A DNA stretch of 11,835 nt from an uncultured Deinococcales bacterium. Its GTDB lineage: Bacteria; Deinococcota; Deinococci; Deinococcales; JAAFIG01. Numbering within the stretch: the stretch's first letter is position 1; each line of letters opens with the position of its first letter. Below are positions 197-11,505 of the stretch, piece by piece. The stretch covers positions 1 to 11,835 of the forward strand of contig CAXTKV010000168.1 in the NCBI GenBank assembly GCA_964244895.1. The letters run 5' to 3'. The notes beneath the pieces were generated by a model. The model did not search any database, was not told the DNA's origin, and was given only the letters and a program-made list of their open reading frames with translations. The translations under genes and the position numbers were made by a program.

Positions 197-344
197 CGCG
201 TCTCTCCTCGCCCGTGCTGACCTGCCCTCGATTGCTCGAGTTCTGGGCTGTCAGCGGGCCGTGGATTGAGGTATAGATCAAAGGGAATGAAAGATTTCTT
301 ACTTTGCTTTCCAGAAGCATGGCTGATTCCCGATCAAATGAAGC

Positions 345-393
345 GAACACCGTCCAGGACGCAAAACAAACCATGCCGTCTACGACGGTGTTC
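345..393. repeat. Family-1 paired palindrome, locus A
   Basis: GAACACCGTCCAGGACG...CCGTCTACGACGGTGTTC; cores CGT-N5-ACG at 351 and 377; outer GAACACCGTC/GACGGTGTTC inverted; just after MFS stop. Confidence 0.85.
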
Positions 394-396
394 TTT

Positions 397-1662
397 TTAG
401 AGATCGCGCCTGAGGCGGCTGGCCAGCCCCCACGAAAGCCCGTAAAGCACCACGCCCAGCGCGAACACGGGCCGATACCCGACCCAGTCCGCCAGTTGTC
501 CGCCCACGACGGACACGAACATCACCGCGCCGACCAGCGTGTTGGCCGTGCCGATGTACCGGCCTCTGGCTTCCGGTTTAGCGACCCCGAGCATGAAATT
601 CGCGTTGCCCAGGTTCAACCCCGCCGCGCCCAGGCTCGAGAGCACGAACACCAGCGCGAACCACAAGCCCGCCCCTTTGGGCATCAAGAGCGCGGTCAAG
701 GGCGCGAGCGCGGCGCAGGCCACCGCGTAGCGAATCAATCGTCTCGAGCCGAAACGTTCCGCGAGCCGCGACCAGACGGCGTTGGAAAGCGGTGCCACCA
801 CCCCGATCACGATCGCGAACGCACCCACGGCGGCCTTGCCGACCCCGATCTCGCGCAGCGCAAACACCGTGAAAAAAGGATCGGAGAGCGTGGCGATGGC
901 GACCGCCGTGCGGTAAATCAAAAACGCGCGGTAATCCGGGTCGTCGCGGATGGTATCCGGCACAGAGCGCACCTCCTGGCGGAAATGCGCGGGTTCCTGA
1001 GGCGGGTCCGGCGGTTCGACGGTGAAGCCGAACAACCACCAGCAGATCGAATGGGCCGTCATGCCCAGCACGAAAATCAGCGTGTAATCGAACGGAAACC
1101 GCCAGTCCGCGCCCAGGATGGCGCGCACCGCGAAGCTTCCGACCAGCGCCAGCAGACCGCCGTAGAGGTTGCGAATTCCAAAAAATCCGGGTCGTTGGCG
1201 GGCCGGAATGACCTTGGCCGTGACTTCCATCCACGGCAGGCCAGAGATGCCCGACGCGAGCGCGTTGGCCGTCAGACCGATCAAAAAGGCGATCAGCAGC
1301 AAGGATGGTTGGCTCGAGAGCAGAACCGTGCTGGTGACAATCCACACGTAAGACGCCGTGCGAATCGTGCTGGCGCGCTGGTACACGACGATCTTGCGCG
1401 GCAAGTGCCGGATGCGGCTGGCGACCAGCAACTGCGGGATCATCCAGCCGCCCGTCTGGATCGCGGGCAGAAGCCCAATCACCGTGTTCGATGCGCCCAG
1501 CACGGCGGCGAAGCTGGACAAGACCACGCTGGCATTCATGAAGCCATCGCCCAATGACGCGAACCAGCCGTTCAGCACGCCGAAAGCGTAATTTCTCTCC
1601 CAGCCAAAACGGTTTTCGAGCCACCCAATCAGTGGCTCGAGCCGGGCAGGAAAGCGGGTCAC
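397..1662 (-). CDS. MFS transporter (~421 aa)
   Basis: Many hydrophobic helices, MFS loop motifs (WSRLAERFGSRRLI, GGQLADWVGYRPVF, IPARQRPGFFG). Start set at GTG 1662 because TATGAT lies 7 nt upstream; ATG 1674 is an alternative; the ORF-track extension to 1905 crosses a repeat and is non-MFS-like. Confidence 0.9.
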   Translation of the reverse strand: MTRFPARLEPLIGWLENRFGWERNYAFGVLNGWFASLGDGFMNASVVLSSFAAVLGASNTVIGLLPAIQTGGWMIPQLLVASRIRHLPRKIVVYQRASTIRTASYVWIVTSTVLLSSQPSLLLIAFLIGLTANALASGISGLPWMEVTAKVIPARQRPGFFGIRNLYGGLLALVGSFAVRAILGADWRFPFDYTLIFVLGMTAHSICWWLFGFTVEPPDPPQEPAHFRQEVRSVPDTIRDDPDYRAFLIYRTAVAIATLSDPFFTVFALREIGVGKAAVGAFAIVIGVVAPLSNAVWSRLAERFGSRRLIRYAVACAALAPLTALLMPKGAGLWFALVFVLSSLGAAGLNLGNANFMLGVAKPEARGRYIGTANTLVGAVMFVSVVGGQLADWVGYRPVFALGVVLYGLSWGLASRLRRDL

Positions 1663-1669
1663 ATGGGCA

Positions 1670-1675
1670 ATCATA
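1670..1675 (-). promoter_or_regulatory. -10 box (TATGAT), leaderless-type promoter of MFS gene
   Basis: TATGAT-TGCCCAT-GTG on - strand, no SD. Confidence 0.6.
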
Positions 1676-1761
1676 CGTCTGGAGCGAATGTTGCTTCTTC
1701 GGGCGGGTTGCTCTTTCGGTGGCTCGGGCTCGAGCGCCAGATTCGCGGGTGTGGCGTAAAA

Positions 1762-1815
1762 AGACCGTGCTGGACGCGGTTCTGCACTGTTTGAGTTTCG
1801 CGTCCAGGATGGTCT
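1762..1815. repeat. Family-1 paired palindrome, locus B
   Basis: AGACCGTGCTGGACGCG...CGCGTCCAGGATGGTCT (17-bp IR, 2 mismatches); cores at 1766 and 1801 (second is CGT-N5-ATG); between divergent genes. Confidence 0.8.
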
Positions 1816-1900
1816 ACCTCGAGGAGGCGTTCCCGGCGTGAACTGACCAATCTGGATCGCGTATGCCATCTGCTTTACCCGGTTTAAAGCCCAACTCGGG

Positions 1901-1906
1901 TACACT
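1901..1906 (+). promoter_or_regulatory. -10 box (TACACT), leaderless-type promoter of VanW-family gene
   Basis: TACACT-CAGATCC-ATG(1914), no SD. Confidence 0.65.
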
Positions 1907-1913
1907 CAGATCC

Positions 1914-3317
1914 ATGAAGTGGATGACATACCTCGCTGCACCGTGCCTCGTCGTGCTGATCAGCATGGCGGGTGCGCAGACCGACCCCGTCCAGCCTCCC
2001 GCCCCGAGCGTTCCCACAGAACCCGCACCGCAACCCACGCCGCCCGCAGATCCGGTCGTGCCTTACCTGCCCAGCCCGCCCGCCCCGACCTTGCCGCCAC
2101 CCGCACCACCCGCCCCCAAACCCGCCGTCAAACCCACCCCCAAACCCGCCGTCAAGCCCGTCAGCAAACCGCTCGAGCTGCGCGCCGACCTGACGGAAAC
2201 ATCCATCCAGGACGGTCAGTTGGTCACCAAGACCTTCTCGCGCGGCTTCAAACTGACCAAAGCGGGCGTGGACGCCAGCCGCAAGTTCAACAAGCTCTCT
2301 TCGAACCTCGAGCCCGAACTGAACCGGATCTTCAACGCTTTAGCGCAGACATCGGACAACGCCCTCTGGAACTACGAAAATGGCGTCTGGGTCGCCCGCC
2401 AGCGCACGGGACGCCGGGTCAACCAGACCGCCACGCGCGACAACATCCTTCAGGCCATCAAGTTCAACAAGAGCCTGGCCATCATTCAGGTGGACGCCGT
2501 GCTACCCGCCCGCAACCTGCAGGACTGGTACGCCAAGGGCATCCGCTATTACTTCGGCGGCGGAACCAGCACCTTTTACGGCAGCCCGCCGTTTCGCGTG
2601 GCGAACATCATCAACGGCGCATCCAAACTGCACCTGACCTACATTCAGCCCGGCGAAAGCTTCGACTTCAACCGTCGCGTCGGGGACATCACCGCCCAGA
2701 CGGGTTTTGTGGACGGCTACATTATCAGGGACGGCCTGCTGGAAAAAGATGTCGGTGGCGGTATCTGCCAGGTCTCCACGACGATGTTCCGCGCGGCCTA
2801 CGAATCCGGCCTGCCGATCCAGCAGCGCAACTTCCACAGCTACCGCGTGCATTACTACGACCCGGTCGGTTACGAGGCGACCGTTTTTGCGCCTTACAAG
2901 AACCTCAAGTACCAGAACGACACGGGCGCACCGTTGTTTATTCAGGCCAGTTGGAATATTCGCCGTTCGACCCTGTCGTTCTTCTTTTTCGGTGCGAAAC
3001 CGGATCGGACATCGAGCGTCTCCAGACCGGTCGTCTGGAAGGTCGTGCAACCGCCTGCGACGCGCTGGGTGGCGGATTCTGCCATCGCGCCGGGGCGTTT
3101 GAAGGTGCTGTCCGGGCCGGAGCGCGGCATGAACGTCCGGATTGACCGCGTGGTGCGCATGAACACCGGCGAGATCAGGCGCGATTCGACCAGCTCGTAT
3201 TACGTTCCGTGGGGCGCGATTTACGCCATCAACCCGAGCGACCCGCGCGTGACCGTGCGGCCCGCATACAGCCTGACGGGTGGCACCGCGCAACGCACCA
3301 GCACCGCCCGCCGCTAA
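1914..3317 (+). CDS. VanW-family exported protein (~467 aa), signal peptide and Pro-rich N-terminal linker
   Basis: MKWMTYLAAPCLVVLISMAGA signal; VanW motifs RVANI, IQPGESFDFN, GGGICQVSTTMFRAA, RNFHSY, LKYQNDTG. Confidence 0.9.
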   Translation: MKWMTYLAAPCLVVLISMAGAQTDPVQPPAPSVPTEPAPQPTPPADPVVPYLPSPPAPTLPPPAPPAPKPAVKPTPKPAVKPVSKPLELRADLTETSIQDGQLVTKTFSRGFKLTKAGVDASRKFNKLSSNLEPELNRIFNALAQTSDNALWNYENGVWVARQRTGRRVNQTATRDNILQAIKFNKSLAIIQVDAVLPARNLQDWYAKGIRYYFGGGTSTFYGSPPFRVANIINGASKLHLTYIQPGESFDFNRRVGDITAQTGFVDGYIIRDGLLEKDVGGGICQVSTTMFRAAYESGLPIQQRNFHSYRVHYYDPVGYEATVFAPYKNLKYQNDTGAPLFIQASWNIRRSTLSFFFFGAKPDRTSSVSRPVVWKVVQPPATRWVADSAIAPGRLKVLSGPERGMNVRIDRVVRMNTGEIRRDSTSSYYVPWGAIYAINPSDPRVTVRPAYSLTGGTAQRTSTARR

Positions 3318-3333
3318 CACCTGTTTCTATGAG

Positions 3334-3390
3334 GAACACCGTCCAGGACGGTGTTCTTTTCTTTTCAAAAAGGCCGTGCCAGACGGTTTT
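3334..3390. repeat. Family-1 paired palindrome, locus C (first unit may double as terminator)
   Basis: Perfect GAACACCGTCC-A-GGACGGTGTTC (3334-3356) followed by T-rich run, then CCGTGCCAGACGG; cores at 3340 and 3375. Confidence 0.85.
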
Positions 3391-3447
3391 CTCGAGCAAC
3401 CGATACGCACTTCGAGCGCGCGAGACATCCCGCGCGCCGCGCGCAGG

Positions 3448-3453
3448 TATCAT
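3448..3453 (+). promoter_or_regulatory. -10 box (TATCAT), leaderless-type promoter
   Basis: TATCAT-CAATCC-GTG(3460), no SD. Confidence 0.6.
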
Positions 3454-3459
3454 CAATCC

Positions 3460-4314
3460 GTGACGCCGACGACGGGGCCAGAAATAGAGCGGTGGCTCGA
3501 GACGATCTACGGCGCCGTGACGCGCGTGGGCGGCGGAGCGCACTCCAGGGTCTTCCGCCTGATGGCCGAAGGCGACGGTTTTGGGGCGGGCGAACGGATC
3601 GTCAAGGTTTACCGCCGCGCGGACGGCATGAACCAGCTCGAGGCGGGCAACATGCGCCGCGCCGGATTGAGCGAGTGGGTCGTCGGGACGCAAAAACCCT
3701 GGGCGGGCGACCCCGAAGTGCTGATGCTGCGCTACTTTCCGGGCACGCCGATATCGGCGGCGCAGATTCCTTACGGCCTGGGGCAACTGAGCGCTTTCTT
3801 GCGCGGACTGCACCGGCAGGGTGCCGGACGCGCCGTCGATCTGCGCGGCGTGCGCGAAAAAATCGTGTCGTTTCGTGAAAGCCTCCAACATCGTCCCGGC
3901 CTGAAACCGCTTTTTGATGCCGTCGAACGCGCCCTTCAATCGGGTTTGCTCGAGACCGAAGCGCGATTGTGCCACCTCGATTTGTGGCGCGCCAACGTCC
4001 TTTACGGTGGCCAATCGCCCGACCTGGGCCGCGTGCTGGTCGTGGACTGGGGCCGCTCCAACTGGGACGATCCCGCCCGCGATTACGCGATTTTAATGAC
4101 CGGAACCTTCGATCAACTGCCCGCCGATCAGGCGGTGCGAACCGCCTTCGATCTGGTCGAACCCGAAGGCATCGCGCCGCGCTTCCCGGCTTACGTCGCG
4201 TTGCAGACCCTGAACGACCTGCACTGGTTCTTGAACCGCGAATCGCAGGGTTTTCAGGATGCGCTGGACGAGAAGCTGCCGCGCGCATTGATGGTGCTCG
4301 AGCGGAAAGTCTGA
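3460..4314 (+). CDS. Aminoglycoside phosphotransferase/choline kinase-like (APH family) protein (~284 aa)
   Basis: GGGAHSRVF loop, IVKVY lysine, Brenner-type CHLDLWRANVL, VVDWG, DPARDYA. Start moved to in-frame GTG 3460; upstream ORF part is repeat/promoter DNA. Confidence 0.85.
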   Translation: MTPTTGPEIERWLETIYGAVTRVGGGAHSRVFRLMAEGDGFGAGERIVKVYRRADGMNQLEAGNMRRAGLSEWVVGTQKPWAGDPEVLMLRYFPGTPISAAQIPYGLGQLSAFLRGLHRQGAGRAVDLRGVREKIVSFRESLQHRPGLKPLFDAVERALQSGLLETEARLCHLDLWRANVLYGGQSPDLGRVLVVDWGRSNWDDPARDYAILMTGTFDQLPADQAVRTAFDLVEPEGIAPRFPAYVALQTLNDLHWFLNRESQGFQDALDEKLPRALMVLERKV

Positions 4315-4328
4315 CGGATCAGCTCAAA

Positions 4329-4372
4329 AACACCGTCCAGCACGCAAATTGGCAACAGCGTGCTGGACGGTG
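4329..4372. repeat. Family-1 paired palindrome, locus D
   Basis: Perfect 15-bp IR CACCGTCCAGCACGC (4331-4345) / GCGTGCTGGACGGTG (4358-4372); cores at 4334 and 4359. Confidence 0.88.
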
Positions 4373-4390
4373 CTCTCGCGGTAAGAACCT

Positions 4391-4639
4391 ATGGGATCAA
4401 ATCCGTTTTGATTTGATCTGTATGTTGATCAAATCAAAACCGCGCCGTGGCGCGTAGGATGCGAATGAAATCGTCTGGAACTGAAGCGGCGAAGCCGCGC
4501 AAGTGAAAGACGATTTCATATGATGGGATCGGACCCGCTCGAGAACTCCCGTTGCGCGCCCTGGAAGGGCGACTCAGCAACGGCGAAAGATCCTTGACTT
4601 CGTTCAGGATGACAAACGAGGGAATCCCTCGAACAGTTC
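4391..4639. other. Multi-hairpin intergenic element (candidate structured RNA or mosaic of small mobile palindromes)
   Basis: IRs at 4405-4418/4427-4440, 4441-4454, 4465-4476/4508-4519 (enclosing GCGGC-GAA-GCCGC), 4549-4583 nested, 4591-4609, 4617-4631. Confidence 0.6.
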
Positions 4640-4664
4640 ACAGATGCCCTCGAGCCGCAGAGCG

Positions 4665-5840
4665 CTATTTCAAAAACTGTTGCAAGATCGGCATCTGCCG
4701 CGCGTCCTGACCATTTTTCGGCTCCAGGCTCGGCGCGTCGCCCCACCACGGGCCCGCCGCCCAGTACGTCCAGCCGCGCCAGACATCCGCGTTCGATTCC
4801 ACGTATTTGATCATGTCCTCCAGAGCCGCGTCGCACTGCGCGTTCTTGCCGCTCGAGACTTCGCCCAGGAAACCTTTGCGCTTGTTGTCCCGCAACCAGC
4901 CCGTGAACGCTTTTAACCGTTCAGATCCGATGGTCGCGCTGACGCACGCGTCTTGCGTGCCCGACCCGTCCGAATCCATGTATTGATGCACCTCGAAGAC
5001 GATGTTATTTCCGGGGTCGGTGATGCCCAGCATGGCCGCAGCGTTGGACGCACCGTCCTGATCGGGTGAAAACCACGTCCACGCGCCCGTCCAACGGTTG
5101 CCGGGCACGAAGATCGTGTTGCTCGCGCCCGCCGCGCGGATCGCGGCGATGGCGGCGTTGGCGGCGCTGACCCATTGCGCGGTGGGGATGTTGTGCGGTT
5201 CGTTGACCAGCCCAAAGACCACGTTCTTGTTGCCCTTGTACTGCACGGCCAGCCTGCGCCAGAAGTCCGCGAAGCCCGCGTTCGGCACGGCGGATGAGCC
5301 GATCAGTTGGCCGTTGTAGCGCGCGTAATTGTGCGGATCCAGGATCACGATCTTTCCTTTGGCAGTGGTGGCCCTGACGAAACCATCCAGGCGCGCGAGT
5401 TCATCGGCGTCGAAGTCGGCGTTCAGCGCGCGTTGCAGGCGCTCCCAGCGGAACGGCAGGCGGTAGATGCTCATGTTTTTGGCGCTGAAGTAATCCACTT
5501 CCGTCTGGTTCGGGTAGGTGTACTGCTTGCCGAACGTGCCCGGCAGGACGCTCTCGCCGAAATCCGCGCCCGCCAGGTTGACGCCTCGCGAGTACGCCAG
5601 GCTCGAGGGTGGGTTGGGTGGCGGTGGGTTGGGTGGTGCGGGCGGTGGTGTGGGGTTCGGTGGCGTCGGTGTTGGCGGGCTGGGTGTTGGTGGGGTGGGT
5701 GGCGTCGGGCTCGAGGGTGGCGCGGGTGGAGGAGAGGCGACGGGCGGCGCGACCGGGTTGGATCCGGACTGAGCGTTGCAGGCTACGAACGCGACCAGCG
5801 CCAGCAATCCGGCCATGAAGCTCACGTGGAGTCTGCTCAT
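4665..5840 (-). CDS. Glycoside hydrolase family 5 endoglucanase (GH5_5-like), predicted lipoprotein with Pro/Thr linker
   Basis: Lipobox-like LVAFVA-C21; Pro-rich linker; GVNLAGADFG, RLPFRWERLQ, LDPHNYARY, NEP (acid/base Glu), EVHQY, FLGE (nucleophile), WAAGPWW. Confidence 0.93.
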   Translation of the reverse strand: MSRLHVSFMAGLLALVAFVACNAQSGSNPVAPPVASPPPAPPSSPTPPTPPTPSPPTPTPPNPTPPPAPPNPPPPNPPSSLAYSRGVNLAGADFGESVLPGTFGKQYTYPNQTEVDYFSAKNMSIYRLPFRWERLQRALNADFDADELARLDGFVRATTAKGKIVILDPHNYARYNGQLIGSSAVPNAGFADFWRRLAVQYKGNKNVVFGLVNEPHNIPTAQWVSAANAAIAAIRAAGASNTIFVPGNRWTGAWTWFSPDQDGASNAAAMLGITDPGNNIVFEVHQYMDSDGSGTQDACVSATIGSERLKAFTGWLRDNKRKGFLGEVSSGKNAQCDAALEDMIKYVESNADVWRGWTYWAAGPWWGDAPSLEPKNGQDARQMPILQQFLK

Positions 5841-5846
5841 GGCTCG

Positions 5847-5852
5847 AGCCTA
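5847..5852 (-). promoter_or_regulatory. -10 box (TAGGCT), leaderless-type promoter of GH5 gene
   Basis: TAGGCT-CGAGCC-ATG on - strand. Confidence 0.6.
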
Positions 5853-5907
5853 AGCGCGTTCCACCCGAAGCGACCGTGAAGAAATCCGAATCGGTGCGTT
5901 CAAAACC

Positions 5908-5957
5908 TATCGTGCCAGACGGTATTCGCGAGGACAACACCGTGCAGGACGGTGTTT
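5908..5957. repeat. Family-1 paired palindrome, locus E
   Basis: TATCGTGCCAGACGGTA and AACACCGTGCAGGACGGTGTT; cores at 5911 and 5941; between divergent genes. Confidence 0.82.
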
Positions 5958-6003
5958 CTCGAGCATCGCCCGAAGCTTTGAGCATCGCGGGAACCCGGAA
6001 TGG

Positions 6004-6009
6004 TAGTTT
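6004..6009 (+). promoter_or_regulatory. -10 box (TGG-TAGTTT), leaderless-type promoter of upp
   Basis: TGnTAGTTT-CGAGCC-ATG(6016), no SD. Confidence 0.6.
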
Positions 6010-6015
6010 CGAGCC

Positions 6016-6642
6016 ATGAGCCTGACCGTGATCGACCACCCGTTGGTGCAGCACAAACTCGCCCTACTGCGCGACCGGGATACCGGATCGAAAGATTTCC
6101 GCGAACTCGTCACGGAAATCACGATGCTGATGGCCTTCGAAGCCATGCGCGACCTGGAACTCGAGGAAATCACCGTCCAGACGCCCGTGTCCGAGGCCAG
6201 GGTCAAGGTGCTGGCGGGAAAGAAGCTCGCGCTGGTGGCGATTTTGCGCGCTGGCCTGATCATGGTGGATGGCATTCTGCGATTGGTTCCCGCCGCCAAG
6301 GTCGGTCACATCGGCACGTACCGCGACCCGGAATCGAAAAACCCCGTGCGCTACTACGCCAAACTGCCCGCCGACATTCAGGATCGGCGCGTTTTCATCC
6401 TCGATCCGATGCTGGCCACGGGCGGCAGCGCGATTGACGCCATCGAGGAACTCAAGAAGGCCGGAGCCTCGAGCATCAAGCTTTTGAACATCATCGCCGC
6501 ACCGGAAGGCGTGGCTCGCGTGGAAAAAGCCCACCCGGACGTTGAAGTGATCGTGGCCGCGCTCGATTCGCATTTAAACGATCACGCGTACATCGTGCCT
6601 GGATTGGGTGACGCCGGAGACCGCATCTACGGCACAAAGTAA
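6016..6642 (+). CDS. upp: Uracil phosphoribosyltransferase
   Basis: [18 protein letters not shown]-binding [11 protein letters not shown]-terminal [17 protein letters not shown]; 208 aa. Confidence 0.98.
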
Positions 6643-6645
6643 GCC

Positions 6646-7176
6646 GTGCGCTACGCCGCCTTTTTGCGCGCCATCAACCTGGGCAAGCACAACCAGGTGC
6701 GGATGCAGGACTTGAGGCTCGCGCTCGAAGCGGCTGGCCTGGGGTGCGTCAGCACGCACCTTCAAACGGGCAACGTGCTGTTCGATGCCGACGGCTCGAG
6801 AGACGAGATCGCTTTGAGCATCGAAGCCGTGATGCGCTCGCTCGGTTGCGTCAACGTCAGCGCGATGGTCAGGACGGGCGCCGAAATGCAGCACCTGGTG
6901 GCGATTCAACCGTTTTCGCCTGCGCCCATACCCGACGACGTGCGCCACTGCATCACCTTCCTGCGCGAGCCGTCCGCCTTGACGCTGCCCGAGCGCAATA
7001 CCAAAGCCGATCTGGAGGTGCTGCACGCCACGATCCTGGACGTGTTCACGCGGCTGCATCCGGTCGTGAATGGTGCGTCACCGAACGCCTTCGTGGAATC
7101 GAAATTGAAAGTTCCAGCCACCACGCGCTTCTGGAACGTGGCGCAGACGGTCGCTGGCTTACTGCGGGAAGAATAA
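6646..7176 (+). CDS. DUF1697 domain protein
   Basis: YAAFLRAINLG...VRMQDLR...THLQTGNVLF and C-terminal TTRFWN pattern; GTG 3 nt after upp stop (operonic). Confidence 0.88.
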   Translation: MRYAAFLRAINLGKHNQVRMQDLRLALEAAGLGCVSTHLQTGNVLFDADGSRDEIALSIEAVMRSLGCVNVSAMVRTGAEMQHLVAIQPFSPAPIPDDVRHCITFLREPSALTLPERNTKADLEVLHATILDVFTRLHPVVNGASPNAFVESKLKVPATTRFWNVAQTVAGLLREE

Positions 7177-7226
7177 AGAACACCGTCCAGCACGCAAATC
7201 ACAAATCGCGTCCAGAACGGTGTTCT
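7177..7226. repeat. Family-1 paired palindrome, locus F
   Basis: AGAACACCGTCCAGCACGC...GCGTCCAGAACGGTGTTCT; cores at 7184 and 7209; between convergent genes. Confidence 0.87.
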
Positions 7227-7241
7227 CGAGAAAACCTGACT

Positions 7242-7784
7242 TCAGGCCGCGGCGCTTCCCTTCGAGCTGGCGCTTTTGAGCTTGGCGATCACTTTCGGGT
7301 TCGATGCCAGATCGATGGCGCGCGTGACGGTTCCCGGAACGAGGGCGTTCGCGTCGGCTCCGGCGTCCAGGAGCGCCTTGACGACGCTCAAATGACCATA
7401 AAAGCTGGCGTGGTGCAACGCCGTCCAACCGTGCGCATCGCGCTGGTGGACGGTGGCGGCGTGAAACCCGGCCCATTCGCGCACGCGCCGTTCGTTGCCC
7501 AGCGCGGCGGCTTCCAGGATGTTCAATTTCATGCCTAAAAACGCCAGCACGTTGGCGACCGCGCGCCGTCTGTGCCGCAAGGCCAGCAAAATGGGTGACG
7601 CGCCCAGGTCGGTTTCCAGCAACCACTGGTGCTGAAGCGCGAGGTGGTGGACGCCGGGCAGATCGCCCGTTTTGATGGCGTTCAGGAAGCTGGCGGCGAT
7701 ATCCGATGGTCGCGGGGTTGGTGTGCGCGCCGCGCCGACGATGTTCGGGTTTCCGGGCAGGTCGTAGGAGATCGCGTTACGCAT
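7242..7784 (-). CDS. Ankyrin repeat protein
   Basis: [32 protein letters not shown] canonical repeat plus degenerate repeats ([20 protein letters not shown]); TAAGAT 8 nt upstream of ATG. Confidence 0.88.
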
Positions 7785-7872
7785 ATGACAGAATCTTAAA
7801 GTGTGTTTTCTCGGATTGCAAGGGGTCAGGCTCGGGTATCAGGAGAGCGAGAAAGTGGCTCGAGACGAAGAG

Positions 7873-7932
7873 CGACCCTGCCGTCATCAGCCAAAAGCGG
7901 GCTGATGACACGTCCCGCACGCCGGGGAGGAC
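7873..7932 (+). repeat. Family-2 REP-like element, copy 1
   Basis: CGACCCTG-CCGTCATCAGCCAAAAGCGGGCTGATGACAC-GTCCC...GGGGAGGAC; internal hairpin GTCATCAGCC/GGCTGATGAC; 7881-7911 is the exact reverse complement of 11460-11490. Confidence 0.85.
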
Positions 7933-8008
7933 TTGAGGGCGGCTTTCTCGGGCGCGGCACATCGCGCCCACGCACGAATCCACCTCTCGAGCCAGCATTT
8001 TGACCAAG

Positions 8009-8065
8009 AAGACCGTCCAGCACGGTGTTTCTCGAGGTCGCAAAAACGCCGTCCGGCACGGTGCG
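8009..8065. repeat. Family-1 paired palindrome, locus G
   Basis: AAGACCGTCCAGCACGGTGTT and CGCCGTCCGGCACGGTGCG; cores at 8014 and 8050; just after response regulator stop. Confidence 0.85.
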
Positions 8066-8066
8066 C

Positions 8067-8720
8067 TCACTCCAGCCCGACCAGACCGATCTTCAGCGCG
8101 TACAACGCCGCCTGCGTCCTGGATGTCAGCCCCAACTTGGAAAGCAAGCTCGAGACGTGCGTCTTGACGGTGCGCTCCTCAACGCCCAACTCGCGCGCGA
8201 TCACCTTGTTGGCGTGACCCTGCGCGATCAAGCGCAGAATCTGCGTCTCGCGCGGCGTCAGGCTCTCGGTCGCGTCGGGCGTCTTGACCTCGCGCGCCAG
8301 GCGTTTGGCGGCCTCCGGGTGCAGGCGAACCTCGCCGCGCCCAGCCGCGTGGATGGCTTCGACCAGCGCGTCCGCCTGCGTGTCCTTCAATAAGTACCCG
8401 ATCGCGCCCGCCTGCACCGCGCCGATGACTTTCGCGTCCTCCAGCACGCTGGTGACGGCGATGACTTCGGTGTCCGGGAACCGAGCTTTGATTTCCTTGA
8501 TCGCACCCACGCCGTCCAGCACGGGCATGACCAGATCCATCAGCACCACGTCAGGCCGCAACGCACCGACCATCTCGACGGCTTCCTGGCCGTTGCTGGC
8601 CTCACCGACGATCTCGAGGGCAGCGTCGAGCGCCAGGAACATCTTCAAACCCTGGCGCACGACCGCGTGATCGTCCGCCAGCAGGACGCGCGTGATCCGG
8701 GTTTCAGGGTTCTCGCTCAT
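8067..8720 (-). CDS. NarL/LuxR-family (LiaR-like) DNA-binding response regulator
   Basis: Receiver LLADDH, LMDLVMP, GYLLKD; LuxR HTH LTPRETQILRLIAQGHANKVIARELGVEERTVKTHVSSLLSKLG. Confidence 0.96.
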   Translation of the reverse strand: MSENPETRITRVLLADDHAVVRQGLKMFLALDAALEIVGEASNGQEAVEMVGALRPDVVLMDLVMPVLDGVGAIKEIKARFPDTEVIAVTSVLEDAKVIGAVQAGAIGYLLKDTQADALVEAIHAAGRGEVRLHPEAAKRLAREVKTPDATESLTPRETQILRLIAQGHANKVIARELGVEERTVKTHVSSLLSKLGLTSRTQAALYALKIGLVGLE

Positions 8721-8726
8721 GCCAGC

Positions 8727-8798
8727 AGTATTTCACTGCGCGCGCCTTCTCGCCTCGTCCTTTGGGCCGAGGACAGGCTCGAGCGCGCGCCCTAAGCT
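8727..8798. promoter_or_regulatory. Bidirectional promoter with central candidate response-regulator box
   Basis: TCGTCCTTTGGGCCGA (8755-8770) is 22 bp from AATACT (8727-8732, - strand, 6 nt before RR ATG) and 22 bp from TAAGCT (8793-8798, + strand). Confidence 0.7.
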
Positions 8799-8849
8799 CG
8801 AGCCATTCATCAGGAGCGCCCCGAAAGGACGCCCGGAAAAGAGAAACGC

Positions 8850-9611
8850 ATGCTGAACCTGGAACGCAACCCGCCACGACCCGCGCCCTGGTCTGACCTG
8901 CTCGAGCCGCGCACGTACTTGAGAATCGCGTATTTGCTCTTGGGTTTCCCGCTCGGGCTGACGTATTTCGTGGTGCTGGTGACGGGACTGGCGCTCGGGC
9001 TTGGGCTTTCGATCACGCTGCTGGGCGTTCCGGTGCTGCTCTGTGTGGTGGGTTTCGTGTGGTCGTTCGTCTGGCTGGAACGCGAGGCCGCCGCGATCGT
9101 GCTGGGACTCGAGTCAACCCAAAGAACGCCGTCCACCACGCGACGCGATTCGGCAATACCGTCTGGAACGGTAAATTCCACCTTTTTCCAATGGTGGAAC
9201 AGCCTGCGCACCTACCTTTCTGGCGGCGAATTCTGGCGCGGACTGGCGCACCTGTTATTGCGCTTCCCGTTCGGCTTGTTCGGTTTCGTGGTGACGGTCG
9301 CGCTGCTGTCCGTCAGCCTCGCGCTGATCGGTGCGCCATTTTTTTACAACCACGACGATTGGAGCTTCGTTTGGAGCGGCTGGCAGCCGAACTTCCTGGG
9401 GTCGTTGTGCCTGTGCGCTGTCGGACTGGGATTGGGTCTGGTTTCGTTGCGCGTCCTGAACCTGCTGGCCGAGAACCTGGCGCGCATGACGTACAGCTTG
9501 CTCGGCGAGGTGTGGCATCTCGAGAAACCGCATCTCGAGCGGGATCTCGAACCTCTGGCGAGGCAAAATCTCGAGCCCACCGACGCGCCGACGGGCCGCG
9601 ACGGGCGTTAA
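8850..9611 (+). CDS. Stand-alone membrane 'putative sensor' domain protein (PF13796-like), paralogous to N-terminus of adjacent kinase
   Basis: RTYLRIAYLLLGFPLGLTYFVVLVTGLALGLGLSITLLGVPVL aligns with kinase RTYSNAVYLLIALPLGIAYFVALIVGFTVGLALAITLIGVPIL; about 4 TM segments; no kinase domain. Confidence 0.85.
   Translation: MLNLERNPPRPAPWSDLLEPRTYLRIAYLLLGFPLGLTYFVVLVTGLALGLGLSITLLGVPVLLCVVGFVWSFVWLEREAAAIVLGLESTQRTPSTTRRDSAIPSGTVNSTFFQWWNSLRTYLSGGEFWRGLAHLLLRFPFGLFGFVVTVALLSVSLALIGAPFFYNHDDWSFVWSGWQPNFLGSLCLCAVGLGLGLVSLRVLNLLAENLARMTYSLLGEVWHLEKPHLERDLEPLARQNLEPTDAPTGRDGR
9122..9177. repeat. Family-1 paired palindrome, locus H (degenerate, inside CDS)
   Basis: AAGAACGCCGTCCACCACGCG and AATACCGTCTGGAACGGTAAATT; cores at 9130 and 9160. 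Confidence 0.7.
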
Positions 9612-9620
9612 GCTCAGGCC

Positions 9621-11366
9621 GTGGCGAGCCTCTCGAACGCGACGCGAATGCGAATTGGGCCAGCCTGGGCTGGCCCGTTCGCGGAATTGATCGCGTGGCG
9701 AACGTACTCCAACGCGGTGTATTTGCTGATCGCGCTGCCCTTGGGAATCGCGTACTTCGTGGCCTTGATCGTCGGATTCACCGTTGGGCTGGCGCTGGCC
9801 ATCACCTTGATCGGCGTGCCGATCCTGCTCGGCACGGTCGGGTTGGTTTCGGGCTTCGCGGGAATCGAGCGCTCGCAAGCCCGATCCCTGGTCGGCCTCG
9901 AGATGCCCGGCTCCGTGCGCGAGGGCTTCACCAGGGACGGAACGCTGTGGGCTTGGGCGCGCAGTTACGTGACGCGGGCGGTGTTCTGGAAATCCTTGAC
10001 GTACCTCTTTTTGAAACTGCCGTGGGGCATCGTGTCGTTCACGCTCACCGTGACGCTGGTGGCGGTCGGCTTGGCGTTTCTGGCCGCACCCGCCTACGCC
10101 CTGGGTTTGCCGATCGCGCTGGGCTTCGGGCAGTCCTACGCGCCGTCCATGCCGCAAGCGTTGGCGCTGTCCGTCGTCGGTTTGGGTTCATGCATGATCG
10201 GAGCGCGAGCCATCAACCTGATGGCGCTCGGTTCCGCGCGGATCGCCCGGTTCATGCTCACTGATGACCAGCAGGAAGCCGAAACGCAACGCTTGCGCGT
10301 AGAAGCTTTGACGCTCGCCTCGAGCGCCGCTAGCCTCGTCTCGAGCATGGGCGACCGGGATTCGTTGACGCGCACGCTGGAAACGTTGATGGCGTCCGTC
10401 AGTCAGGCCTCCAGCGCGAACGCGTGTGCGCTCGTGACCACGACCTCCGGTGCGATCAGACGCGTGGCTGCCGCGCACGGTTTCGCGCCCGGCCCGCTCG
10501 AGGTGGCGCTCGATGAACTTCCCGCGCTCGAACCCGATTCTGGAGCGCGGGTGCAAAAATCCCGCGCCCTGAACGGTGCGACGCTGGCCGCGATCCCGCT
10601 CGAGGCCGGAGGGCGCGTCTTCGGGCAGTTGGTCGCCGCTTACCCGAAAGGTGCGAATCCCAACCGCAGCGAACTCGAATTCCTGAAAGCCATCGCGGAT
10701 CAGTCCAGCCTGGGTCTGGAGAACGCCCGCTTGATCTCCGCCGCCCGCGACGGCGCGGCCCTGGAAGAGCGCCACCGTCTGGCGAGAGAACTGCACGACA
10801 GCGTCTCGCAGGCCCTCTACGGCATCGCGCTCGGGGCGCGCACCGCCAAAACGCAACTCGCGCGCGACCCCTCGAAGGTGGCTGAACCCCTGGAATACGT
10901 GCTGCAACTGGCCGAGGCCGGACTGACCGAAATGCGCGCGCTGATCTTCGAGCTTCGCCCGGAAGCCTTGGAAACCGAAGGTCTGGCGGTCGCGTTGCAA
11001 AAACAGGCCGATGCCGTGCGCGTGCGCTACAAACTTCCGGTCGAAACTGCGCTCGGTGCGGAACCCGATGTCAGCCTCGAAATCAAACAAGCCCTCTTGC
11101 GCATCGCGCAGGAAGCCCTGCACAACACCGTCAAACACGCCCGCGCCAGCCACGCGCGGCTGAAGCTCGAGACATCGGCGTCCAACATCGCGCTCGAGAT
11201 TACCGACGACGGCGCGGGCTTCGATCCGAATGCGCGCTTCGATGGGCACCTCGGGCAACGCTCCATGCGCGAACGCGCCGAAGCCATCGGTGCGCACTTT
11301 GACCTGGAGACCGCTCCCGGCGCTGGCACGCGCATCCGCGTGTCCCTCGAGATGCACTCCGCATGA
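9621..11366 (+). CDS. Sensor histidine kinase (membrane sensor + GAF-like + HisKA_3 + HATPase_c)
   Basis: H-box ERHRLARELHDSVSQ, N-box RIAQEALHNTVKHA, ITDDGAGFD, LGQRSMRERA; GAF-like AIPLEAGGRVFGQL. TAAGCT-6nt-GTG supports the 9621 start. Confidence 0.96.
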   Translation: MASLSNATRMRIGPAWAGPFAELIAWRTYSNAVYLLIALPLGIAYFVALIVGFTVGLALAITLIGVPILLGTVGLVSGFAGIERSQARSLVGLEMPGSVREGFTRDGTLWAWARSYVTRAVFWKSLTYLFLKLPWGIVSFTLTVTLVAVGLAFLAAPAYALGLPIALGFGQSYAPSMPQALALSVVGLGSCMIGARAINLMALGSARIARFMLTDDQQEAETQRLRVEALTLASSAASLVSSMGDRDSLTRTLETLMASVSQASSANACALVTTTSGAIRRVAAAHGFAPGPLEVALDELPALEPDSGARVQKSRALNGATLAAIPLEAGGRVFGQLVAAYPKGANPNRSELEFLKAIADQSSLGLENARLISAARDGAALEERHRLARELHDSVSQALYGIALGARTAKTQLARDPSKVAEPLEYVLQLAEAGLTEMRALIFELRPEALETEGLAVALQKQADAVRVRYKLPVETALGAEPDVSLEIKQALLRIAQEALHNTVKHARASHARLKLETSASNIALEITDDGAGFDPNARFDGHLGQRSMRERAEAIGAHFDLETAPGAGTRIRVSLEMHSA

Positions 11367-11375
11367 TCGCCGCTC

Positions 11376-11427
11376 GAGAACACCGTCCAGCACGTAAATA
11401 TCAACTCGCGTGCTGGACGGTATTCTC
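11376..11427. repeat. Family-1 paired palindrome, locus I
   Basis: GAGAACACCGTCCAGCACG / CGTGCTGGACGGTATTCTC, 19-bp IR with 1 mismatch; cores at 11384 and 11409. Confidence 0.88.
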
Positions 11428-11434
11428 ACTTTTT

Positions 11435-11498
11435 GTCCTCCCCTGCTTTAGGAGGGGAAGTGTCATCAGCCCGCTTTTGGCTGATGACGGAGGGGTCG
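11435..11498 (-). repeat. Family-2 REP-like element, copy 2 (inverted relative to copy 1)
   Basis: GTCCTCCCC...GGGGAA-GTGTCATCAGCCCGCTTTTGGCTGATGACGG-AGGGGTCG. Confidence 0.85.
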
Positions 11499-11505
11499 TC
11501 GTCGT

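Follow-up and report, generated by a model that had tools for sequence, protein, structure and literature searches.

Paired palindromes with turn-quantised spacing and phased A/T flanks: a lineage-specific repeat family in an uncultured Deinococcales bacterium

The window analysed here is the whole 11,835-nt stretch of contig CAXTKV010000168.1 (C168 in our numbering) from assembly GCA_964244895.1 of an uncultured Deinococcales bacterium. An earlier reading of this DNA, made from its letters alone (the sequence-only reading), had reported a palindrome, CGT-N5-ACG, that occurs in pairs in most intergenic gaps. We call one palindrome with its arm a unit and a pair a doublet, and we followed both through the source assembly (G000; 5.12 Mb, 328 contigs, 62.7% GC, 91% complete) and 18 further genomes of its family, the source being the sole member of its genus among the genomes compared. 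We observed a defined unit, two spacing classes one helical turn apart, an unconserved and unpaired linker, a flip in unit polarity, phased A/T flanks, about one locus per gap, and vertical conservation.

The window carries nine doublets. Doublet A (343..395; cores at 351 and 377, spacing 26) lies in the tandem gap between an MFS gene and a response regulator gene, with arm scores of 26.6 and 21.8 bits. B (1758..1819; cores at 1766 and 1801, spacing 35) occupies a divergent gap between MFS and VanW-like genes, and C (3332..3393; cores at 3340 and 3375, spacing 35) a tandem gap. D (4326..4377; cores at 4334 and 4359, spacing 25) directly follows an APH-family gene in a convergent gap, and E (5903..5959; cores at 5911 and 5941, with the minor spacing of 30) separates the divergent cellulase and upp genes. 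F (7176..7227; cores at 7184 and 7209, spacing 25) is again in a convergent gap, where an arm adjoins the stop codon of a DUF1697 gene. G (8006..8068; cores at 8014 and 8050, spacing 36) and I (11376..11427; cores at 11384 and 11409, spacing 25) lie in tandem gaps, after a LuxR-type regulator and a histidine kinase, respectively. H (9122..9178; cores at 9130 and 9160) is located inside a PF13796 sensor gene (open reading frame 8850-9611), where its spacing of 30 equals 10 codons; the placement in intergenic gaps first described therefore holds for eight doublets and not for H.

All 18 cores and all nine spacings were re-found where the sequence-only reading had placed them, including the core at 1801, which is imperfect and ends in ATG instead of ACG. 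The gene contexts were also as described (B and E divergent, D and F convergent), and A, C, G and I are tandem. Agreement on folding was partial: B, D and I form long hairpins and both C and E two self-palindromes, as proposed, while the best fold of G is one imperfect long hairpin rather than self-palindromes. Strict cores and strict pairs number 15 and 5 in the window, compared with means of 0.6 and 0 (maxima 3 and 0) in 200 Markov shuffles.

In the whole genome CACCGT-N5-ACGGTG is present 291 times, whereas none of 12 other spacer lengths occurs more than three times. A weight matrix trained on the genome gave a polar unit of 19 nt, RRGAACAC followed by CGTCC-W-G(G/C)ACG, conserved at CGT/ACG (3-5 bp from the unit centre) and at TT/AA (9-10 bp). 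The family first written as CGT-N5-ACG is thus real, but CGTCC-W-GGACG with an outer GAACAC arm is the better consensus. At 14 bits we counted 4,811 units (4,325 intergenic, 486 genic), whereas a Markov model of the intergenic DNA yielded 13 and reversal of the genome sequence 36. These form 2,976 loci, namely 1,172 singles, 1,775 doublets and 29 with more than two units; a weak partner at 25, 26 or 35-37 stands beside about 279 of 808 intergenic singles. The genome-wide weight-matrix scan that had been suggested as a check thus shows paired copies to dominate, at spacings that are not continuous. Likewise, no catalogued family was recognised, as before: Rfam gave no match to the unit family at gathering score, and the doublet pattern, present 681 times in the source genome, occurred at most once in each of 363 other Deinococcota genomes.

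Loci were found in 251 of 290 convergent, 843 of 1,184 tandem and 149 of 321 divergent gaps of 100-299 nt, which points to a bias towards gene 3' ends, and loci hug stop codons even in long gaps; 401 loci lie between divergent genes. One locus per gap is commoner than under random placement (800 against 612 ± 15 tandem gaps), and the median distance between loci is 1,313 nt. The presence of a site showed no relation to a codon-bias proxy of expression (p = 0.29). Nine contigs (C5, C15, C130, C173, C181, C187, C190, C221 and C50) are almost without the repeat; by eye they hold sugar-catabolism, defence-like and conjugation-like genes, and they are probably recently acquired DNA. Genic units exceed synonymous shuffles (346 against 145-150 at 14 bits, 64 against 8-15 at 22 bits) and pair at 25, 26, 30 and 34-36; we listed 44 genic doublets, some of which arise by chance. 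In-frame doublets write TPSST- or NTVQDG-like peptides into protein linkers, among others on C274 (nuoG), C220, C101 and C146 and at C3:11339-14584.

Successive units are spaced mainly at 25 (791), 26 (128), 35 (536) and 36 (202) bp, with minor classes at 24 (17), 30/31 (48), 34 (34) and 41/42 (31); in this count none fell below 22 and none at 28, 38, 44 or 45. Among the 1,835 pairs within 60 bp, 1,657 (90%) belong to the four main classes, and five lie at 28, 32, 33, 38, 39 or 44-51. The step from 25/26 to 35/36 is one helical turn. Quantisation had therefore been read correctly from the window, but half-turn steps are not the rule: the 30 class exists, and it makes up two of the nine window loci and only 48 of the 1,835 pairs genome-wide (at 30/31). 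Polarity changes with spacing, the GAACAC-type flank lying outside in 89-94% of 25/26/35/36 pairs and inside in 74-83% of 30/31 pairs; the choice between 25 and 26, or 35 and 36, tracks the type of inner flank.

The linker is unconserved, as the sequence-only reading had stated, with an identity of 0.40-0.42 between copies against 0.75-0.81 for arms and cores. Every doublet is unique, and even the most similar copies are separated by differences at 4 of 56 and 8 of 66 positions. Column shuffles give nearest neighbours that are somewhat less alike than the real ones, and therefore some subfamily or motif structure exists. We rejected tandem duplication as the origin of the 35/36 class, given no excess at lag 10 or 11 and a 7-mer repeat at lag 9-12 in only 2 of 719 linkers.

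The DNA outside the doublets is also patterned. A/T content peaks at about 12, 25, 36, 47 and 58 nt from the core end, and over 3,329 flanks the best period was 11.25 bp; its power of 134 compares with a maximum of 24 among 200 controls with shifted anchors. The rhythm holds for both spacing groups, for singles, for CTCGAG-masked sequence and for coding flanks, in convergent and divergent gaps, on either side in tandem ones, and within codons at positions 1 and 3 (2 being borderline). It was absent at 2,055 stop-codon anchors without a unit. In both spacing groups the phase is set by the unit, so that a further turn leaves the whole array in register. The signal is significant out to the interval of 54-98 nt, borderline at 65-109 and gone at 76-120, and statistically the pattern covers about 80 bp on either side of each doublet. 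An example is 11428..11500, single flanks being noisy; over the 18 flanks of the window A/T is 0.43 at peak and 0.34 at trough positions. Decayed third units were rejected as the source of the rhythm, because weak units at spacing 42 occur in about 2% of flanks, which is too few. These local phased flanks are a new result of this analysis. An 11-bp period is commonly linked to negatively supercoiled DNA (PMC4132750). A rhythm present on both strands, independent of transcription and carried in host codons would be the mark of bent or wrapped double-stranded DNA, left either by selection or by a mutational footprint.

The sequence-only reading had favoured a paired, spacing-quantised, double-stranded site over a simple terminator, and the spacing, RNA-signature and flank tests support this. 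With doublets oriented by transcription, sense-orientation G-U mismatches numbered 882 against 940 A-C mismatches in the pooled set (370/418, 95/109 and 279/316 in the 25, 26 and 35 classes), and U-tract asymmetry was absent. Chimeric halves fold as well as genuine 35/36 doublets. The first linker positions pair below expectation (z -6 to -7 in the 25 class), two inner positions are mildly positive, and the two variable centre positions of the 25 class covary (z 8). Matched off-consensus changes were 25 against 24 expected in the 26 class and 163 against 153 in the 35 class.

The claim that the repeat is no simple terminator thus stands for the bulk of the copies; partly against it are some covariation and the stop-hugging of the 25 class and several tRNA terminators made of the unit. 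The latter lie 3' of tRNA genes on C118, C31, C48, C159, C306, C147, C4 and C16, and they take the form either of a unit stem with a U-tract or of a doublet whose outer halves have decayed, leaving the inner half with a paired linker. The lengths of hairpins that have a paired linker but lack outer halves are spread flatly. Given these results, we conclude that a minority of doublets, mostly in the 25 class, has a second role as RNA hairpins, and that the spacing rule is not an RNA trait. Units also occur between about 24 tRNA genes, some atypical, in a large array on C151, and a smaller array lies on C178.

We then considered how the repeat has been inherited. Four metagenome contigs from congeners, selected because they hold a doublet, are 76-84% identical to the source over aligned stretches. 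In the orthologous gaps of three of them the source genome has a doublet of the same class (26 versus 25, 25 versus 25, 36 versus 35), the linker of the 25/25 gap being rewritten at equal length; in the fourth it has a single two-armed unit, which looks like the loss of one unit together with the linker. A relative of about 95% identity keeps the register and length of locus B; by eye, the two share 11 of 21 linker positions and 7 of 9 core positions, and one change falls on a conserved base. At locus H, TPSxT...TPSxT recurs at exactly 10 codons in 10 homologues (61-79% identity) and is missing in two at 49%.

A dialect of the repeat in other genera was looked for and rejected. A relaxed pattern gave at most 10 matches per strand there against 866 in the source genome, and many of these matches were tRNA terminators or coding sequence. 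No comparable repeat was found de novo in 388, 220 and 240 kb of three genomes of other genera (G003, G004 and G006) or in shorter pieces of other family genomes. In the genus labelled g4 (L032-L038), a conserved palindrome stands upstream of upp at the place of locus E; it is loosely unit-like and is not repeated in the 388 kb of G003. The unit pattern gave at least 10 scattered single matches in a genome-collection scan and no match in a first metagenome scan, and viral scans, with 53 single and 19 paired matches, yielded no case of two scoring units at family spacings. A literature search that left most subscription journals outside its range found no description of the family, and none of doublets that combine turn-quantised spacing with phased flanks.

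Gaps with a doublet are longer than those of relatives by a median of 131 bp (n = 30, three shorter), compared with 6 bp for gaps without one (n = 57), while the nuoG doublet occupies a protein linker of equal length in relatives that lack it; hence both insertion and in-place overwriting seem to have occurred. Junctions of 8-27 bp in relatives correspond to 260-390 bp in the source genome at C8:22348, C129:9004, C14:15158 and C223:4155, far beyond doublet size, and the extra DNA at such expanded syntenic junctions has no shared sequence by eye. No clean empty site was found in the pieces of a relative of 92-95% identity.

Taken together, these patterns lead us to favour the doublet as a putative double-stranded site at which two protein dimers would bend or wrap the DNA; insertion probably seeded such sites, and part of them probably took on a second use as 3' hairpins. 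Judged from sequence, we hold this to be the probable explanation. Two dimers of a predicted base-reading, sequence-specific protein would sit together on the cores of a doublet and touch at a fixed rotational angle. A helix-turn-helix-type dimer would presumably fit the conserved CGT/ACG and TT/AA positions on either side of the unit centre. The dimers would bend the A/T linker and constrain about 80 bp on either side, so that a unit of some 200 bp would recur at intervals of roughly 1.3 kb. The complex may organise the nucleoid, for example by holding the apices of supercoils in place or by drawing gyrase to gene ends. As doublet gaps are longer than in relatives, the sites may have spread first by insertion and later been kept by selection, with some copies, mainly of the 25 class, subsequently reused as 3' RNA hairpins or terminators.

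Several observations weigh against this reading. The 36 class has an excess of G-U mismatches (138 against 97, p = 0.009) and a mild excess of matched changes (70 against 52 expected). Genuine 25-class doublets fold 1.7 kcal/mol better than chimeras, and matched changes in this class reach 161 against 83 expected, complementary in 0.76 against 0.64; in tandem gaps, roughly every second copy of this class has a stop codon no more than 30 nt away. Canonical terminator calls at 844 element-bearing gaps were 94 in sense and 44 in antisense, a net 50. The 41 class is half a turn off and yet unflipped (76% outer). Candidate binding proteins (HU paralogues, a basic Deinococcota protein, a histone fold and ComP) were checked, and none was linked to the repeat. 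Spacers of REPINs, a known class of paired palindromes, are likewise described as conserved more in length than in sequence (PMC3116915). Phased flanks could, moreover, reflect target choice by a mobiliser. Gene boundaries come from our own simple caller (4,551 genes, 80.8% coding), which reproduces the Pfam-supported open reading frames of the window. Finally, an 11.25-bp A-tract rhythm exists far from the loci genome-wide, and for this reason we also anchored the measurement on generic A-tracts. Here the result favours the dimer reading: at 20-65 nt the amplitude was 3.55 points at the elements, compared with 0.3-1.4 at 12 A-tract anchor sets and 0.66 at 1,770 other hairpins, so that near the element the rhythm is 2.5 to 3 times that at generic anchors. 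At 43-87 nt it was 1.7 against at most 1.1 at generic tracts, and beyond about 85 bp it is not clearly above them.

Part of this evidence would suit an old REPIN- or MITE-like family with two founder lengths, whose copies act as single-stranded hairpins, either as a substrate of mobility or in the 3' protection of mRNA. Spacing peaks would then reflect descent, and phased flanks the target preference of a lost or unassembled transposase. Such a history, which we regard as unlikely though worth serious attention, would account for inverted, lineage-specific doublets, one per gap and biased to gene 3' ends, for the longer gaps (median 131 bp against 6 bp), and for covariation and stop-hugging in the 25 class; the assembly is also 91% complete. 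However, the recombinase or RAYT partner considered by the sequence-only reading was not supported. A PF01797 (Y1 transposase) search of this assembly returned no match (best E 1.23), and no transposase-like gene was seen by eye in 69 stretches bracketed by lone inward-pointing units. The other hallmark of MITEs, target-site duplication, was not convincing in 1,622 doublets (best z = 3.7 among 567 combinations of boundary and length). The consensus has no unpaired GTRG or CGTC tag, no near-identical copies exist, the 35/36 linkers keep no trace of a 10-bp tandem duplication, and the nuoG doublet sits in a linker of unchanged length. The linkers anti-covary, and because they are saturated without length scatter, selection is needed to explain them.

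Protein sites of a known kind were weighed as well. The loci might be strong DNA-gyrase sites like E. coli BIME-2, with gyrase wrapping the phased flanks and the palindromes favouring cleavage, an account to which we give little credence. The E. coli gyrase motif has a 36-bp centre and two flanks, symmetric about the dyad, with a period of 10.75 bp; BIME-2 elements and the stretches downstream of transcribed genes are enriched in gyrase (PMC6379681). In the 25 class the span from core to core is also 36 bp, the A/T peaks of the 35/36 class (about 35.5, 48.5 and 60 from the dyad) fall near gyrase tracts (about 38.5, 50 and 61, by eye from the supplement of that report), and the source genome has, by motif, one GyrA and one GyrB. 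Yet the phase is locked to the unit and not to the dyad, which places the 25 class (30.5, 43.5, 55, 65.5) half a turn off; the period is 11.25 rather than 10.75, the signal exceeds 130 bp in total, and the same description calls gyrase recognition degenerate, not base-specific (PMC6379681). Gyrase alone is thus a weaker fit than the dimer reading. It is very improbable, in our view, that the repeat is a lineage-specific DNA uptake sequence (DUS) like that of Neisseria, accumulated in permissive places through biased uptake and recombination. The thousands of copies, their scarcity in island-like contigs and the genic excess over synonymous shuffles would agree with this, as would in-place replacement in nuoG and terminator use, traits common to DUS (PMC2397512). 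Nevertheless, one DUS suffices, and DUS pairs are described there as terminator hairpins within 21 nt (PMC2397512); uptake gives no reason for turn-quantised pairs or phased 80-bp flanks, and 4,325 of the 4,811 units are intergenic. Scarcely any more credible is a family made up mostly of intrinsic, bidirectional terminators of stereotyped sequence. Unit stems with U-tracts do follow several tRNA genes, and look-alikes in relatives are often tRNA terminators, but in the 25 class TTTT follows the arm of only about 12% of doublets in sense orientation, as often as in the mirror orientation (37 against 36 of 310). In addition, 401 loci lie between divergent genes, and terminators explain neither spacing nor flanks.

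The repeat is laid out like REPINs and may work like BIME-type protein sites. With REP/REPIN-RAYT systems it shares high-copy, lineage-specific, intergenic inverted doublets with preferred spacings, a spacer less conserved than the repeats, a bias to gene 3' ends, few in-frame genic copies, and singles that are probably doublet-derived (PMC3116915; PMC2817692; PMC3733652). Unlike REPINs, it has no GTRG/CGTC tag (the consensus is symmetric, with CGTC inside the palindrome), no RAYT was found, and there are no young copies; compensatory pairing is absent from the linker and the 26 and 35 classes, modest in 25 and mild in 36. The two one-turn-apart classes, the half-turn polarity flip and the phased flanks are further differences, known REPs being compared by description only, and the 1,775 doublets stand against 431 reported for P. 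fluorescens SBW25.

Dispersed palindrome pairs at gene ends with an A/T-rich linker are likewise found in E. coli BIME-1, whose linker is bound by IHF, and BIME-2, bound by gyrase (PMC2817692; PMC6379681). BIMEs are described as double-stranded protein sites, the same role is predicted here, and HU/IHF-family proteins and gyrase are present in the source genome. In contrast to BIME-1, the linker is free in sequence (identity 0.40-0.42), has two lengths and holds no conserved IHF-type site; in contrast to BIMEs generally, the units are not strung into tandem arrays (29 of 2,976 loci contain three or more) and the phasing runs into host genes. The E. coli gyrase motif shares a symmetric centre, periodic A/T-G/C flanks and a position downstream of genes (PMC6379681), whereas here the cores are base-specific, the period is 11.25, the phase is tied to the unit rather than the dyad, and the centre has two lengths. 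HIP1 and the 11-bp 'structural code' are similarly hyper-abundant, conserved, genic as well as intergenic, read at the DNA level and proposed to be linked to the nucleoid, the code with a signal in codon positions 1 and 3 (PMC5861425; PMC4132750). HIP1, however, is a single octamer, whereas in this genome the 11-bp signal is anchored locally by polar 19-bp units that stand in phased pairs. The neisserial DUS shares thousands of copies, core-genome bias, origin in permissive places and reuse as terminators, but is non-palindromic, active singly and without a helical spacing rule (PMC2397512).

More tentatively, the repeat could be a form of sequence-encoded chromatin-like positioning, with about 3,000 sites, one per intergenic gap, at which a lineage-specific dimer-of-dimers fixes some 200 bp of bent or wrapped DNA. 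By analogy with eukaryotic nucleosome positioning, it is conceivable, if doubtful, that this arrangement has been stable for so long that the synonymous codons of neighbouring genes carry its helical phase. That this real, lineage-specific family of dispersed palindromes amounts to a dedicated nucleoid-positioning system is possible at best. A long-open question about dispersed bacterial palindromes is whether they serve as RNA hairpins, are parasites or offer protein sites that organise the chromosome, and no anchor points are known for the 11-bp period of bacterial genomes. With 1,775 natural variants of a one-turn-spaced, phase-flanked pair, the geometry lends itself to tests on synthetic DNA alone, and REP, BIME and HIP1 are open to the same test of their flanks. 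A dedicated protein, if found, would join sequence-specific nucleoid organisers such as MatP, SlmA and ParB, none of which is known to have anywhere near as many sites.

Among the candidate partners, three HU paralogues (C10:5198-5500, C103:16593-16886 and C117:13596-13862) were rejected as binders for want of a link to the repeat; most family genomes have two, and the extra copy has strong codon bias. A basic 159-aa protein without a Pfam family (L163, C258:1094-1573), which has a lysine/alanine tail and is conserved in Deinococcota, is possibly an uncharacterised nucleoid protein. It is not tied to the repeat; it is also present in 12 of 18 relatives that lack the repeat, and it matches only hypothetical atlas clusters. 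No histone fold was found in the source genome, and a ComP search returned nothing in 19 genomes, though its positive control also matched nowhere. Eleven tyrosine-recombinase matches, one DUF559 and one GIY-YIG protein had no link to the repeat, and the genes with most sites nearby were unrelated housekeeping genes. Rho was not found in the source genome and is present in 17 of 18 family genomes. We rejected its loss as a driver; in 4 of 10 regions from relatives, rho is followed directly by a gene that in the source genome starts at the first bases of contig C149, so the missing rho is most likely an assembly gap off the start of that contig.

Other repeats share this genome. CTCGAG, a HIP-like hexamer, has 21,883 copies (4.3 per kb) in the source genome and a density of 2.4-8.3 per kb in family fragments. 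It adjoins the outer arm at 439 of 3,405 doublet ends without left-right co-occurrence, and is therefore not a target duplication; it is a separate family-wide feature, distinct from the doublet unit. In the window, a hairpin at 4590-4616 on the minus strand is REP-like, with about two copies in the genome, and we take it to be CGTC-type. A second, low-copy repeat lies at 7876-7945 and 11429-11505 as a GTCATCAGC...GCTGATGAC hairpin, which we assume to resemble CGTC-type or DUF559-associated repeats; the two copies gave 5 and 16 BLAST pieces, with six pattern matches.

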